Positions 643-7,972 of a DNA stretch of 8,376 bases are shown here, piece after piece. Position numbers and translations under genes: made by a program. This stretch comes from a virus (taxonomy: Duplodnaviria > Heunggongvirae > Uroviricota > Caudoviricetes), in IMG/VR virus record IMGVR_UViG_2671180743_000009; one strand, written 5' to 3'. The number at the start of each line of letters is the position of its first letter. The first letter of the stretch is position 1. The notes below the pieces were generated by a model. The model was not told where the DNA came from. It did not search any database and saw nothing but the letters and a program-made list of their open reading frames with translations.

Positions 643-717
<75 letters not shown>

Positions 718-720
718 ATA

Positions 721-796
<76 letters not shown>

Positions 797-798
797 GC

Positions 799-875
799 TG
801 GCCCACCACCGAGGACTCGAACCTCGCACCGTCAACTTAGAAGGTTGATGCTCTATCCGGATGAGCTAGTGGTGG
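799..875 (-). tRNA. tRNA-Arg, anticodon UCU
   Basis: Reverse complement CCACCACTAGCTCATCCGGATAGAGCATCAACCTTCTAAGTTGACGGTGCGAGGTTCGAGTCCTCGGTGGTGGGCCA. All four stems are Watson-Crick, the anticodon loop is CTTCTAA, and CCA is encoded. The molecule starts with an unusual C1-G72 pair. Confidence 0.75.
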
Positions 876-876
876 T

Positions 877-953
877 TGGTGGCCCTTGCTGGACTTGAAC
901 CAGCGACCTGGCGATTATGAGTCGCTCGCTCTGACCAACTGAGCTAAAGGGCC
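877..953 (-). tRNA. tRNA-Ile2, anticodon CAU (lysidine type, ileX/ileZ-like)
   Basis: Reverse complement GGCCCTTTAGCTCAGTTGGTCAGAGCGAGCGACTCATAATCGCCAGGTCGCTGGTTCAAGTCCAGCAAGGGCCACCA. Anticodon loop is CTCATAA. Acceptor, anticodon and T-arm segments resemble E. coli ileX from memory rather than elongator or initiator tRNA-Met. Confidence 0.75.
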
Positions 954-3541: not shown

Positions 3542-4228
3542 TCACTCCTTCTCTTCTTTACCGTAGTGGAGTTGACCAATTTTGATAAGAGGGCGTCCCT
3601 GAGATTTGCGGTGTAGATTGGTATCGCGCAGAGAATACACACAGCCACAATATTCCTGCTGATAGAATTTTTCGCGCTTGCTGATTTCAATCATACGGGA
3701 CGAGCCGCCCTGCTTGCGCCAGTTATAATCCCAGTACACCATGCCCGGATAATGCGCGACGGCTCGCCGCCCACAGTCGTTAACCTGCTGCATATTTTTC
3801 CAGCGTGAAATGCCCAGTGAACTGCTGATCACACTGAAACCATTTTCAGCGGCGTACAGCGCTGTCCGCTCAAAACGCATGTCAAAACACATGGTGCAAC
3901 GGATCCCTCGTTCGGGCTCCCATTCCATTCCTTTGGCTCGTTCAAACCAGTTGTCTGTGTCGTAATCAGCATCAATAAACGGCACGCCGTGTTGTTCAGC
4001 AAAGCGAATATTCTCATCCTTACGAATTAAATACTCTTTCTGAGGATGAATGTTCGGGTTGTAGAAAAAGATGGTGTAGTCGATTCCCGAGGCCTGAAGC
4101 GCCTCCATCACCTCACCGGAACATGGAGCACAGCAAGAGTGCAGTAGTAGTTTGTTTGCCCCGTTTGGGAGCTCCAATTTGGGCCGTTTGAAATCAGCAA
4201 CTGTCATAAATATGTTTATTGGGGTCAT
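3542..4228 (-). CDS. queH: QueH-like epoxyqueuosine reductase (DUF208 family), 228 aa
   Basis: ORF 3542..4228 carries the ordered motif set I associate with DUF208/QueH: [11 protein letters not shown] near the N-terminus, then [29 protein letters not shown] and YCGCVYS near the C-terminus. Start codon is ambiguous (ATG at 4228 or 4207; neither has a clear Shine-Dalgarno). Confidence 0.7.
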
Positions 4229-4375: not shown

Positions 4376-4732
4376 TTATTCAGTTCTGGATTTTGTCGCC
4401 CTGCGTATCCGCGCTTTCGCGTTACGCTCAATCTGTATCAGCTTTTCTATATTTCTCCGCCTTTCCTGTTCCTCCTGGCGCAATAGCCTTACATCATCTG
4501 CCAGTCTGGTTTCTCTTTTTGCCACAGAGAGCATCCAGTCAAACGGCTCCACAACCGCACCGCAGATTTTACAGCGGACCTGACGCTCTTTTTCGTCAAC
4601 CCGTACAGAGGCGTGATGGCAATATGGTCTTTCCGATGGCTCATAAAGAAAATTAACCTGATTACGAGGGTCATCCTCTTTTACCGGAAATAAAACGATA
4701 TTGCTTAACTCATCTTCTGGTTTTATTTCCAT
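4376..4732 (-). CDS. Hypothetical protein, 118 aa, Cys/His cluster plus basic coiled-coil-like C-terminus
   Basis: Part of the 4376..4789 ORF, starting at the ATG at 4730-4732, which has an AAGGAGAGGAG Shine-Dalgarno. Contains CHH...CKIC, consistent with a small zinc ribbon, then a Glu/Arg-rich segment. No homolog recognised. Confidence 0.45.
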   Translation of the reverse strand: MEIKPEDELSNIVLFPVKEDDPRNQVNFLYEPSERPYCHHASVRVDEKERQVRCKICGAVVEPFDWMLSVAKRETRLADDVRLLRQEEQERRRNIEKLIQIERNAKARIRRATKSRTE

Positions 4733-5226: not shown

Positions 5227-5973
5227 CTACTTAACAACCCTCGAATGGCTAACATTCGGACGCCAGCTCTCCCAGTTAAAATTCACCCAGCGCCCGCCGT
5301 TCATGACCATGCGATCCATCACCCGCTCGCCGAGCAATGTTTTCATCACCTCATAGTTCAGGTTTGTCAGCATCCCCACGCTGCGCATCGACGCTGTCCG
5401 GCGATCAACAATCTGGTGCAGCACCACCTGCTCGTTTTTCGTCTCGCGCTGAATGCCAATTTCATCAAGAACCAGCAGATCCACTTCGCACAGCTCCCGC
5501 AAAAATTTTTCGCCTGACTGCCCGTCGTCATAGCTGGCGTGCAGGGCGCTCATAACATCAGCCACGGTAACCACAATCACTGTCTGACCGTCTTTCAGCA
5601 GGCGATTCCCGATAGCTGCCGCTAAGTGATTCTTCCCGGTACCAGGTTTTCCGCTGAACGCAAAATTTGTACACCCGGTCATCAGTTCATCGGCGATGGA
5701 TTTCGCCTGGCTTAACGCGTATCGCTGGCCGTCGTTCTGCACCTGGTAATTCGCAAACGAGCATTTACGGTGCAACGGCTGGATGCCTGAGCGATTCAGA
5801 ATTTTTTCCACCCGCAACTGGCGATTCAGGCGGTTGATCTCCTCGCTACGTTTCTGGCCTTCAGCAAGTTGCCACTCGCGCCACTCCGCTACCGTTCTGA
5901 ATGGGGCGGTTACATGTGGCGGGGTCAGTCGGCGGATGCGTTCCAGAACGCCGCCTGTCGCAATATTTTTCAT
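5227..5973 (-). CDS. DnaC-like helicase loader (phage replication protein, YdaV-like), 248 aa
   Basis: ORF 5227..5973. Walker A FSGKPGTGKNHLAAAIGN, Walker B DLLVLDEIG and LLGERVMDRM align along the whole length with E. coli DnaC as I recall it. Confidence 0.9.
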   Translation of the reverse strand: MKNIATGGVLERIRRLTPPHVTAPFRTVAEWREWQLAEGQKRSEEINRLNRQLRVEKILNRSGIQPLHRKCSFANYQVQNDGQRYALSQAKSIADELMTGCTNFAFSGKPGTGKNHLAAAIGNRLLKDGQTVIVVTVADVMSALHASYDDGQSGEKFLRELCEVDLLVLDEIGIQRETKNEQVVLHQIVDRRTASMRSVGMLTNLNYEVMKTLLGERVMDRMVMNGGRWVNFNWESWRPNVSHSRVVK

Positions 5974-6328
5974 GGTCCGTTACCCCCTGAAGCCTGGCGG
6001 GATCGCACTGTCCGGCAACGAGACGGTGTTAACCTGTCGGAGCAACGTCTCAGGCCGAACACCTTTCGGCGCGAACAGGCCCTGGTATTCATTGGCGATG
6101 CTGTGTCGAATCACCTGCTCAGGTGTAAAACCCTGCTGACGGAATTTTTCCAGTTCCCGTATCGCCCCGTTAGCGCCCTGCTCCGTTCGAATCGGTTTTC
6201 GCAATGCCTGTCTGAACCGGACCCACTCATGCCAGAGTGTTTCCGGCAACCAATCGGGCAGCTCAATAGCCTCCGGCTCGAATTTTTTAGACGCTCGTTT
6301 TTGGCGAGGGGGAGATCAGTATTTAGAT

Positions 6329-6366
6329 CTTCCTCTTCCTCTTCCTCTTCCTCTTCCTCTTCCTCT
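6329..6366. repeat. Hexanucleotide tandem repeat (CTTCCT) x 6.3
   Basis: Six perfect CTTCCT units plus CT, read directly. On the coding (minus) strand it is (GAG GAA)6, i.e. Glu x 12, in the middle frame of the YdaU-like gene. It also creates the poly-Ser artefact in the plus-strand ORF 5869..6381. Confidence 0.9.
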
Positions 6367-6390
6367 GGTAACGCTTTTTGATCCGTTTGT

Positions 6391-6409
6391 GTAACGCTGG
6401 CAGCGTTAC
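6391..6409. repeat. 19-bp perfect palindrome GTAACGCTG-G-CAGCGTTAC (copy 1 of 3)
   Basis: Read directly; 9-bp arms around one central base. A GTAACGCT half-site lies at 6368-6375 and an inverted GTTAC...GTAAC pair at 6436-6455. Confidence 0.85.
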
Positions 6410-6599
6410 CTTTTCGTTTCAGTTCGCGTATTTTTGTTACTCGCTCGTTTGTAACCGCCCGTTTTTTTTAGAGCTTTTTCCGTTATGACGTTCAAAGTTA
6501 GGTAGAGAAAGCCCACCGTCATTTTCGACCAGCCATCCAACCTGAATTAACGCATCAGCAAAACCAGACATAAAAGTGATGCGATCTATTGCACTTTTT

Positions 6600-6618
6600 G
6601 TAACGCCGCGAGCGTTAC
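6600..6618. repeat. 19-bp palindrome GTAACGC-CGCGA-GCGTTAC (copy 2 of 3)
   Basis: Read directly; 7-bp perfect arms. Lies inside the YdaU-like N-terminal coding region, where it encodes CNARGVT. Confidence 0.85.
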
Positions 6619-6791
6619 AATCTGCATTACCGTCTATCATTTGTTGATCCGCCCATGCCCAGAAGCGAATAACCTTCCCTAATGCGGCATCTGGATCAAT
6701 ATTCAGAATCTCAGCAAGCCTGAATATTTCCGGCTTATCCGGCGTAATAACCTCGAGCTTTATCCAGTTTGAAGCCATTTGTTTTCACCTT

Positions 6792-6810
6792 GTAACGCTC
6801 GCAGCGTTAC
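6792..6810. repeat. 19-bp palindrome GTAACGCT-CGC-AGCGTTAC (copy 3 of 3)
   Basis: Read directly; 8-bp perfect arms. Ends immediately next to the Shine-Dalgarno sequence of the YdaU-like gene. Confidence 0.85.
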
Positions 6811-6855
6811 ATTTAACTGATACCGAACAAAACAATCCGGCACGATTAATTTCAA

Positions 6856-7274
6856 TCAATGCACTACGACAGAATCGCCGGGCGACCCACCACCGCTGAA
6901 ATGTGCTTTCCGGTAAACGGCCTGGACAGCATCATCATGCGCATCAATTGCCGTACTCAACGCTTCCTGCGCCGCCAGTAATGCACGGCGTTCCAGGGTA
7001 TCGAAGATACAGAGTCGGTGACGCAGCTCACGCGGAAGAATTGCCAGAACCGCAGGGATCAGTTTCTGAATTTTTTCCCTTTGCGCTTTCGTTTCACCTT
7101 TCAACCAACGGTGATAGATATTCTGCTGATTGTTCCAGTCCTTGCCTGGTACCAGAGACAATTCGCCGCCCCCCTGCCGCAGATATTCTTCAGTAATTGC
7201 GTTAGCGACCCACGCCTGCCCTTTTTCGGCTGCCAGGGCAACAGCACTGATTCGATGTGCTCATGCCTGATTTT
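6856..7274 (-). pseudogene. YdaT-like protein (CII-analog partner of the Cro-like gene), apparent frameshift near the N-terminus
   Basis: An ATG at 7272-7274 has an AAGGTGA Shine-Dalgarno and overlaps the dicC-like stop (ATG...TGA), but that frame closes after about 70 codons. The long open frame (in phase with ORF 6856..7161, which has only a TTG start) is open from the dicC stop at 7261. One inserted base between about 7165 and 7262 would give a protein of about 138 aa, matching the roughly 140 aa I recall for Rac YdaT. Confidence 0.4.
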
Positions 7275-7488
7275 CATGAATCACCTTCCAAGGTCGTTTT
7301 GCCTTACGATATTCGTCATAAACTTTGGGGTCGTACTGAAGTTCCCCGCCAGATGCCTCTTGCAGGCGCATCGCGCGACCTTCAGGAACCAGTTCCCCCC
7401 ATGCAGCAATGCTTGCCAGCCTAACTCCTGCGGCATTGGCAAGCTTTGTTTTGCTGCCAAAAAACGCTATAGCATCAATTTTCAACAT
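7261..7488 (-). CDS. dicC: Cro-like small DNA-binding protein (DicC/YdaS family), 75 aa
   Basis: ORF 7261..7488, MLKIDAIAFFGSKTKLANAAGVRLASIAAWGE..., transcribed divergently from the dicA-like repressor. AAGGAG Shine-Dalgarno 6 nt upstream. Similar to Qin DicC from memory. Confidence 0.75.
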   Translation of the reverse strand: MLKIDAIAFFGSKTKLANAAGVRLASIAAWGELVPEGRAMRLQEASGGELQYDPKVYDEYRKAKRPWKVIHENQA

Positions 7489-7564: not shown

Positions 7565-7972
7565 ATGAAAAACGAAACCTTCGGTGCTCGCCTCTTACAT
7601 AGGCGTAAAAAATTAAAACTGTCTCAGGCCGCATTAGGTAAGCTGGTCAAAGTGGCTCACGTAACAATTTCTCAATGGGAAAGAGATGAAACACAGCCGG
7701 CGGGGAAAAGATTATTCGCACTGAGCCAAGCGCTTCAGTGCTCACCGACTTGGCTTCTTTTTGGGGATGAAGATAAACAACCAGGCGAACCGATCCCGGA
7801 TAATCAGCCAGCCATTCTGACAGAAGATCAAAAAGAGTTACTTCAACTGTTCGACGCACTGCCTGAGTCAGAGCAAAAGGCCCTGTTGTCAGAGATGCGT
7901 GCTCGAGTTGAAAATTTCAACAAACTTTTTGAAGAACTACTCAAAGCTCGCAAAAGAAGCGCAAACAAATAA
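7565..7972 (+). CDS. dicA: DicA-like prophage repressor (XRE-family helix-turn-helix), 135 aa
   Basis: ORF 7565..7972. The helix-turn-helix region LSQAALGKLVKVAHVTISQWERDETQPAGKRLFALSQALQCSPTWLLFGDEDKQP and the C-terminal ALPESEQ...MRARVENFNKLFEELLKAR match Qin DicA from memory, including its 135-aa length. Confidence 0.85.
   Translation: MKNETFGARLLHRRKKLKLSQAALGKLVKVAHVTISQWERDETQPAGKRLFALSQALQCSPTWLLFGDEDKQPGEPIPDNQPAILTEDQKELLQLFDALPESEQKALLSEMRARVENFNKLFEELLKARKRSANK

Follow-up and report, generated by a model that had tools for sequence, protein, structure and literature searches.

What is the role of a perfect 19-bp palindrome that occurs three times, at intervals of about 200 bp, in and just before a phage replication gene? 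The question is raised by an 8,376-nucleotide stretch of DNA from a Caudoviricetes virus (IMG/VR record IMGVR_UViG_2671180743_000009), which is analysed here at its full length and is called the window; coordinates are those of the window and signed offsets those of the gene. An earlier reading, made from the letters without database searches (the sequence-only reading), had proposed that the palindromes are sites for a dimeric DNA-binding protein, serving as origin iterons, autoregulatory operators or recombination sites, or that they reflect a repeat in the encoded protein. We find that they are sites conserved at the DNA level that always accompany a single family of replication initiators. 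We conclude, with a probability of roughly 0.7, that they are lambda-style initiator-binding sites of a replication origin located inside the initiator gene, and most likely they mark the previously undescribed origin of this initiator family.

Three perfect palindromes in and before a replication gene

The palindromes have the form GTAACGC-N5-GCGTTAC and are perfect at 6391-6409, 6600-6618 and 6792-6810. The start-to-start distances are 209 and 192 bp, in agreement with the spacing first reported. Allowing up to two mismatches, there is no further copy in the window; the chance expectation is 0.01, and none of 200 dinucleotide shuffles reached three. Moreover, seven of the window's eight occurrences of the 7-mers GTAACGC and GCGTTAC, counted on either strand, fall inside 6368-6810.

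Read along the gene, which lies on the minus strand, the first copy is the upstream palindrome, site U (GTAACGCTCGCAGCGTTAC, 6792-6810, an exact match), 32 nt before the initiator start codon. As had been noticed, it adjoins the ribosome-binding site, ending at an AAGGTG Shine-Dalgarno sequence that stands 7 nt before the ATG at 6778. Site 1 (GTAACGCCGCGAGCGTTAC, 6600-6618, also exact) is inside the coding sequence at +160 nt, where it encodes C-N-A-R-G-V-T; its residues belong to a low-confidence loop of the predicted N-terminal domain (residues 51-60, predicted local distance difference test score 59). Site 2 (GTAACGCTGGCAGCGTTAC, 6391-6409) is at +367 of the intact gene, at the end of the N-terminal domain and the start of the linker. 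It encodes G-N-A-A-S-V-T in the intact gene; in the window, it lies in the frameshifted stretch where the earlier reading had placed it, out of frame through an insertion of two A residues.

Single half-sites accompany the palindromes. The one proposed at 6368-6375 is an exact GTAACGCT and is conserved in the family; as GCGTTAC on the gene strand (6368-6374, minus strand), it is the terminal half-site, which follows the right arm of site 2 at 23 bp and directly precedes a polypurine tract. A degenerate half-site absent from the earlier account, GTAATGC on the gene strand (6624-6630, minus strand, 6/7 match), lies 12 bp upstream of site 1, a spacing that fits the periodicity of the family; by alignment, it arose through a four-codon "NADC" insertion specific to the E. 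coli subgroup. The supposed half-sites at 6436-6455, on the other hand, find no support: this segment is GTTAC-N10-GTAAC, consisting of pentamers only, tail-to-tail and thus in the opposite relative orientation. The pentamers fall in a conserved RAVTNERVT coding stretch, and the half-site map of the family shows no enrichment of the tail-to-tail GTTAC/GTAAC arrangement.

The gene belongs to an initiator family with its own N-terminal domain

The gene (5980-6778, minus strand) is a replication-initiator gene of PHROG 2509, present in the window as an N-terminal domain open reading frame (ORF; 6437-6778) and a C-terminal domain ORF (5980-6249). Relative to the intact copy, it carries two lesions: the two extra A residues, in a homopolymer (T8 at 6462-6469 on the plus strand), and a 10-bp deletion near 6313, between TCCCCCT direct repeats. 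These two indels make the gene of the window a pseudogene. The closest complete E. coli genomes (97-98% identical) have an intact 262-codon ORF, annotated "hypothetical protein", whose product matches the PHROG 2509 profile "replication initiation protein" with an E value of 1.2e-89, residues 1-262 aligning with profile positions 1-277 of 277. Against Pfam, the same 262-aa protein has no match even at E=10.

The earlier label "YdaU-like" is correct for one part of this protein. The C-terminal 124 aa (residues 139-262) are 81% identical to K-12 YdaU by tblastn, and nothing else aligns. The label does not suit the putative DNA-binding part: the N-terminal ~130 residues form a family distinct from DUF1376, with no DUF1376 match among 37 family members. 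Searches of this domain against Pfam, NCBIfam and PDB gave nothing significant, and it has no sequence relative in PDB; 5 of the 37 members have a spurious CpeS match, and 1 of the 37 has a marginal Pfam match to Phage_rep_org_N at E=0.019, which is not significant. An "O-like" match to phrog_678 is limited to residues 77-236. Structure prediction suggests that the N-terminal domain may be a winged helix, using an alignment that is shallow because the protein homolog search returned mostly truncated or chimeric fragments.

The sites accompany the initiator family

A scan of IMG/VR viral contigs for the exact 19-mer pattern returned at least 120 loci, about 100 of which encode a homolog of the N-terminal domain (28-99% identity), and these homologs almost always carry two sites, at +139 to +165 nt and at +337 to +441 nt of the gene. 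As a sample free of palindrome bias, relatives were chosen only by the N-terminal peptide MA[GS][DES]W[IL]Kx[ERQ]. Of at least 555 such relatives in IMG/VR, 80 were taken; all 80 have at least one site at up to two mismatches, and two sites with these same offsets are present in 77. All loci were then clustered at 80% identity, giving 67 clusters. Site 1 is present in 57 clusters and both sites in 55. The upstream copy occurs in just three, at -32 to -44; it is restricted to an enterobacterial subgroup of relatives at least 63% identical, in genomes of Erwinia, Serratia, Mixta, Pantoea, Shigella and E. coli.

The motif is also confined to this position. Within -100 to +520 of the gene there are 276 exact palindromes, against 2 in the remaining 1.31 Mb of the loci. 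The motif is thus not scattered over the genomes, and related prophages and phages carry it at equivalent positions, the two outcomes on which the sequence-only reading had staked its proposal.

Bacterial genomes give the same picture. With each bacterial species represented by one genome, a search for pairs of exact palindromes 184-214 bp from each other, a design that favours exact sites, found 20 loci; every one encodes the N-terminal domain and has its sites where they were expected. The hosts are Enterobacterales, Pseudomonas-like and other Gammaproteobacteria, six Planctomycetota genomes or metagenome-assembled genomes (MAGs) and one Oscillospiraceae MAG. The Planctomycetota loci (L215, L218-L220, L225, L228, L232 and L234) have the same domain and exact GTAACGC palindromes at the same gene offsets. 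The Oscillospiraceae (Firmicutes) locus, L224, has a 32%-identical version with many CNA/half-site repeats, and contamination of this MAG is possible. Such a host range is unusually wide for a single initiator/site specificity. Family members occur in the cultured phages epsilon15, TL-2011b, CP2, PAN70 and phiPSA1, as well as in prophages of distant phyla. At most about a quarter of complete E. coli genomes carry the family: 1502 of 5426 match the query region, which is an upper bound since that region includes ydaV and the shared C-terminal part.

Selection acts on the DNA

Conserved positions within a gene might still be explained by the protein. Both intragenic copies of the window do encode x-N-A-x-x-V-T in one frame, as had been pointed out, and the palindrome could then be a by-product of an internal peptide repeat. 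However, other homologs read this 19-mer in a frame shifted by one base, as V-T-x-x-A-L-x (15 clusters at site 2 and 3 at site 1; 18 of 130 sites), and one copy of the window is non-coding. The palindrome consensus is GTAACGCT-N3-AGCGTTAC, with the central 5 nt free. The flanking residues vary (C, G, S or R), yet xGT and xGC are kept; members that lack site 1 have unrelated residues in that loop.

Codon choice tells the same story. For this comparison, motifs were defined at the protein level only (NA..VT), which gave 89 instances in the 67 clusters. The Asn codon is AAC in 89 of 89 (64% elsewhere in the same genes), the Val codon is GTT in 89 of 89 (29% elsewhere; P ~5e-48), and the preceding codon ends in GT in 88 of 89, whichever residue it encodes. 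The unbiased, peptide-chosen subset has the same codon fixation, at 77/79 and 76/79. Since the motif is read in two frames and its synonymous positions are fixed, selection must act on the DNA. We therefore reject the internal protein repeat, to which next to no probability remains.

Site sequence follows the initiator clade

Which protein, then, would read these sites? The initiator itself is the only protein family common to all 67 clusters; the next real neighbours are found in 21 and 17. Other clades of the same N-terminal domain have different palindromes, again in two clusters within the gene and followed by the same polypurine repeat. TGTCCGC/GCGGACA is found at +53-100 and +332-389 in epsilon15, Klebsiella phage BUCT711, phiPSA1 and Ralstonia phage RPZH3. 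Ralstonia phage Raharianne has GTAGACG-N6-CGTCTAC at +153 and +369, plus extra half-sites; Vibrio phage 1.211.A has TGTCAC/GTGACA at +164-198 and +357-372; and a metagenomic locus, L188, has GTGACGC/GCGTCAC at +148, +340 and +364. Initiators of the GTAACG type are 46-61% identical to one another and the four of the GTCCGC type 64-99%, against 32-42% between groups. Site type tracks the protein clade and not the host: three Ralstonia phages represent three types, and the GTAACG type is found in phages of Escherichia, Xanthomonas, Pseudomonas and Ralstonia. An initiator together with its own sites would be expected to show this pattern.

Helix-turn-helix proteins are encoded nearby, and a YdaT-box-like TTGATT-N6-AATC stands ~35 bp from the upstream copy, so that a host factor or another prophage regulator (YdaT/cII-like, Cro/cI-like or the DUF977 helix-turn-helix protein) could be proposed as the binder instead. 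Indeed, the sequence-only reading had put forward the 140-aa helix-turn-helix protein, DUF977, alongside the gene product; this candidate finds no support, as neither DUF977 nor any other neighbour is common to the family. YdaT was rejected as well: its published sites in Rac and CP-933P are different sequences in a different place, at ydaS/ydaT. Since site type follows the initiator clade, a host factor is excluded, one motif being shared by prophages of Pseudomonadota and Planctomycetota yet three motifs occurring within Ralstonia phages. On the same ground, YdaT, Cro/cI or DUF977 as the binder is very unlikely.

Half-sites on one helical period and an adjoining polypurine tract

In the gene, half-site hexamers keep to two intervals, +100 to +200 and +300 to +450; elsewhere they number 0.26 per kb. 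The second cluster usually exceeds one palindrome: left half-sites are repeated upstream, and right half-sites downstream, of a dyad. Half-sites of the same orientation are spaced by whole helical turns: 11-12 bp in 98 cases, 22-24 bp in 45 and 33-35 bp in 17.

The last right half-site is followed by C[A/T] and then by a polypurine run, mostly (GAGAA)4-5. The 30 nt after it are at least 80% purine in 49 of 65 clusters, and most of the 65 fit the consensus GCGTTAC-C[A/T]-(AGAGA)n. A 5-nt repeat unit cannot be a peptide repeat, and the tract is therefore a DNA feature as well; it is translated as EKRREE or REEKRREE, depending on phase. In the window, the tract is (GAGGAA)x6 on the gene strand (6328-6366, minus strand), a 39-nt polypyrimidine run on the plus strand that adjoins the last half-site and that the earlier reading did not mention. 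It encodes a poly-Glu linker and is a candidate unwinding or helicase-entry region. The closest intact copy (L001) has three GAGGAA units rather than six. The A+T content beside the repeats is ~50% here (50-57% for the polypurine tract), and 30-mers at 6312-6350, at 60-63% A+T, are among the least stable of 5900-7300.

About a quarter of the clusters (17 of 65) have, 20-68 nt beyond the last half-site, a pair of C-tracts (C5-6/N2-5/C5-6), whose frequency elsewhere is 0.003 per kb. Homologs translate the pair in two or more frames (NPPNPP, TPIPPxG); it could be an additional element of the origin, or else a Pro-rich motif of the protein. In the window, comparison with the intact copy shows the remnant of such a pair, CCCCC-N-CCCCC on the gene strand (6308-6312, minus strand, within 6303-6316), one C-tract having been lost by the 10-bp deletion. 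The pair is also present in K-12 ydaU (L002, ~4630-4660) and, among other loci, in L029, L115 and L165.

Might the palindromes instead act as hairpins or cruciforms, in mRNA or single-stranded DNA, as a translation or decay signal, an antisense terminator or a single-strand initiation signal? Each copy can make a 7-9-bp stem, 6391-6409 plus CTTTTCGTTT was flagged as terminator-like on the plus strand, and symmetric changes in other clades keep complementarity, as in GTGACGC...GCGTCAC of L188. However, the arm sequence is invariant across the 67 clusters of the GTAACG clade, with none of the co-variation that pure structure would permit, and many unpaired half-sites are direct repeats at 11-12 bp, which cannot pair. 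The single terminator-like match equals the chance expectation of 1.0. An Rfam search of 5900-7300 gave no match beyond a chance-level small RNA at E=0.8, and neither a known RNA family nor an intrinsic terminator rose above chance. We consider a structural role of this kind improbable.

A probable origin at the domain boundary of the initiator

The segment 6368-6409, with site 2 and the terminal half-site, falls where the predicted N-terminal domain ends and ahead of the poly-Glu linker; nearly all homologs have the same arrangement. The C-terminal domains beyond this point are interchangeable: YdaU-type here, DnaT-like in epsilon15 (L203 2501-3178, NCBIfam DnaT 3.8e-17), and DUF1627 or PF17948 elsewhere. 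The swap point coincides with site 2 and the polypurine linker.

This location brings in recombination, with the sites as microhomology or recombinase targets for exchanging initiator domains. Site 2 falls exactly at the boundary between the N-terminal domain and the exchangeable C-terminal domains (YdaU-type, DnaT-like, DUF1627), some ten database proteins, truncated or chimeric, change to unrelated sequence precisely at site 1 or site 2, and P0056 resembles a deletion from site 1 to site 2. The switching proteins (P0007, P0015, P0016, P0025 and P0055-P0060) may reflect either real recombination or assembly breaks at repeats. They come mostly from short metagenome contigs, where repeats also break assemblies; moreover, the loci have no recombinase in common, and occasional exchange hardly explains selection that fixes synonymous sites across phyla. 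As the function of the sites, module exchange thus has a slim chance; recombination there is more likely a by-product of conserved origin sites.

The sequence-only reading was right that the palindromes behave as sites for a symmetric binder, and of its three options, origin iterons fit best, because of the conserved gene positions, the fixed synonymous sites, the co-variation with clade, the 11-12-bp spacing and the adjacent polypurine tract. The sites, the selection on them, their exclusive association with the domain, the co-variation, the spacing and the tract are computational observations; by analogy with lambda, we infer a course of events as follows. The predicted winged-helix domain of the initiator would bind each GTAACGC-N5-GCGTTAC as a dimer. 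At the boundary of domain and linker (6368-6409), half-sites ~11.5 bp apart could let more subunits stack on one face of the helix, and the duplex would open in the polypurine tract (6328-6366) or in the low-stability DNA beyond. The C-terminal domain would then recruit the DnaC-like YdaV and the host DnaB helicase. The copy at 6600-6618, ~200 bp upstream, would be auxiliary, as would the third site of enterobacterial members, 6792-6810; auxiliary sites may loop to the core or may also dampen transcription into the gene. As with lambda-type origins, a helicase-loader gene stands immediately downstream, here ydaV; DnaC- or DnaB-like genes are downstream in PAN70, phiPSA1, Raharianne, Carin1 and RPZH3.

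The sites could alternatively be autoregulatory operators only, through which the initiator or another phage regulator blocks transcription into or across the gene, with the origin located elsewhere. One copy abuts the ribosome-binding site, bound sites can form roadblocks when the gene around them is transcribed, a spacing of ~200 bp is suitable for repression loops, and the canonical AT-rich element is absent. This promoter-proximal copy, however, is missing from 64 of 67 clusters, whereas the two intragenic clusters are nearly universal, and no promoter-like site was found near any copy. The half-site array and polypurine repeat at the linker have no obvious role in repression, and their position matches that of lambda-type origins. 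We regard regulation alone as unlikely; autoregulation via the upstream copy, like a part in recombination, is possible as a secondary role.

Several points weigh against a replication origin here. Our literature search found no experimental binding or replication results for any member of the family. The layout is unlike that of lambda, with full sites 184-264 bp apart across the family rather than in tandem; helical phasing between site 1 and site 2 is weak (Rayleigh p ~0.02) and not specific to one period; and there is no classical AT-rich element, the polypurine tract reaching just 50-57% A+T. The upstream copy is limited to one subgroup, promoter prediction near it gave nothing, and the intragenic sites could equally serve autoregulation by transcriptional roadblock. 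Finally, the initiator of the window is a pseudogene.

A wider reading is that the family represents an unrecognised class of phage origin found across bacterial phyla, in which a distal palindrome, a dyad-centred array of 7-bp half-sites spaced by one turn, a pentanucleotide polypurine opener and, for one member in four, a C-tract pair are embedded in alternative frames of the initiator coding sequence. Sister clades would have changed to other half-sites, with GTAACGC kept as it was from Enterobacteria to Planctomycetes; firing would be controlled by looping of the distal sites to the core, and the sites would double as junctions for domain exchange. We offer this only tentatively, and as a whole it is rather doubtful.

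Prophage context and decay

The minus-strand genes around the initiator form the early-right operon of a Rac-like prophage. Upstream of the initiator are a YdaT/cII-like gene (6856-7161 and upstream, 6856-7290, minus strand) and a Cro/YdaS-like gene (7261-7488, minus strand), with a cI/RacR-like repressor gene (7565-7972, plus strand) beyond them. Directly downstream is ydaV (5227-5973, minus strand; RefSeq name ydaV), which encodes a DnaC/IstB-like AAA+ helicase loader (Pfam IstB_IS21 1e-19, Bac_DnaA 2.5e-8), the presumed partner of the initiator C-terminal domain. Other prophage genes of the window are DUF977, a hok-like gene, DUF1367/1364/1133 and QueH (epoxyqueuosine reductase; 3542-4228). 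Four tRNA genes (643-953, minus strand: Gly-TCC, Thr-TGT, Arg-TCT and Met/Ile-CAT) lie downstream of the DUF1133/Q-like gene. The minus-strand sequence TTGATTGAAATTAATCGT (~6842-6859) resembles the CP-933P YdaT operator TTGATT-N6-AATCAA in 10 of 12 bases; it overlaps the ydaT stop codon and lies ~35 bp upstream of site U.

Besides the lesions of the initiator, the decaying prophage has lost 1 bp of its ydaT-like gene, near 7240; all palindromes are still perfect. With palindromes and terminal half-site intact but initiator and ydaT broken, the element in this window has most likely become a relic without function, unless the cell contains another, intact initiator with the same specificity. 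As the initiator is frameshifted twice, the putative origin could fire only with such an initiator supplied in trans.

Significance

If confirmed, these assignments would locate the origin, and give the recognition code, of a large initiator family with neither a Pfam model nor a solved structure, and the natural specificity variants (GTAACGC, GTCCGC, GTAGAC and GTCAC) would be a resource for studying how initiators read DNA. They would show clearly how regulatory DNA can restrict the codons and the loop sequence of a protein. In practice, they would allow origins in phage genomes to be annotated by a simple sequence signature and would give a likely sequence-level handle on Rac-type origins (oriJ).

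Comparison with known origins

The closest parallel is the lambda ori/O system, including that of the Stx phages 933W and P27. In lambda, O dimers bind iterons, imperfect inverted repeats of 19 bp that occupy the middle of O beside the unwinding region (PMC7466680). The element described here likewise lies within an initiator gene at the junction of N- and C-terminal domains, has 19-bp inverted repeats that would suit an initiator dimer, and combines a strand-asymmetric tract beside the sites, which may open easily, with a helicase-loader gene directly downstream. As in lambdoid phages, separate phages own separate initiator/site pairs (PMC7466680). In contrast to lambda, the initiator is not an O homolog, and instead of 4-6 tandem iterons in ~100-150 bp, there are two or three clusters, with full palindromes 184-264 bp apart and only the half-sites in tandem, at 11-12-bp spacing. 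Moreover, (GAGAA)n or (GAGGAA)n replaces the A+T-rich region, and the loader is DnaC/IstB-like and not P.

The second parallel is the Rac prophage of K-12. Rac-type prophages contain the origin oriJ (PMC3945230), and a 2023 paper still gives the function of ydaUVW as undetermined (PMC11014345). The gene order racR, ydaS, ydaT, initiator, ydaV is the same, as is, at 81% identity, the C-terminal part of the initiator. In contrast, the N-terminal domain of YdaU is DUF1376, whereas that of the present family is unrelated and goes with another site sequence; K-12 Rac has no GTAACGC palindrome. K-12 ydaU (L002, 4120-4977) nevertheless contains a repeat of its own, TGTTCAAAC, at +147, +391 and +425 and inverted at +448, so that a similar two-cluster layout recurs with an unrelated DNA-binding module. 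This repeat is a likely sequence-level candidate for the oriJ iterons.

The half-sites at whole helical turns also recall the initiator sites of iteron plasmids and phage-plasmids (P1 RepA, R6K pi, RK2 TrfA), whose Rep proteins are winged-helix proteins, as the present initiator is tentatively predicted to be; distant clusters could loop or "handcuff" in a similar manner. Plasmid iterons, however, are direct repeats of 17-22 bp that are bound by monomers and usually lie outside the rep gene, whereas the present unit, a 7-bp half-site, is grouped about a dyad within coding sequence; the searches showed no similarity of the initiator to Rep_3 or RepA. In Bacillus phage SPP1, the "replisome organiser" G38P binds oriL sites inside its own gene; these are direct AB boxes, and a second origin lies far away. 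The present family would share intragenic sites with G38P/oriL, and one member has the non-significant Phage_rep_org_N match.

In literature searches on the motif, the polypurine repeat, ydaU/DUF1376, oriJ and the epsilon15 origin, we met with no account of these sites, nor with a sequence-level description of oriJ, of the palindromes or of the polypurine repeat. Taken against these systems, the element resembles a lambda-type intragenic origin but stands outside the O family. The principle of an intragenic origin is what would be expected of lambdoid phages; less expected are how far the family has spread, that its half-site is kept exactly from one phylum to another and is written in two reading frames, and that palindromes, half-site array and tract form a composite.

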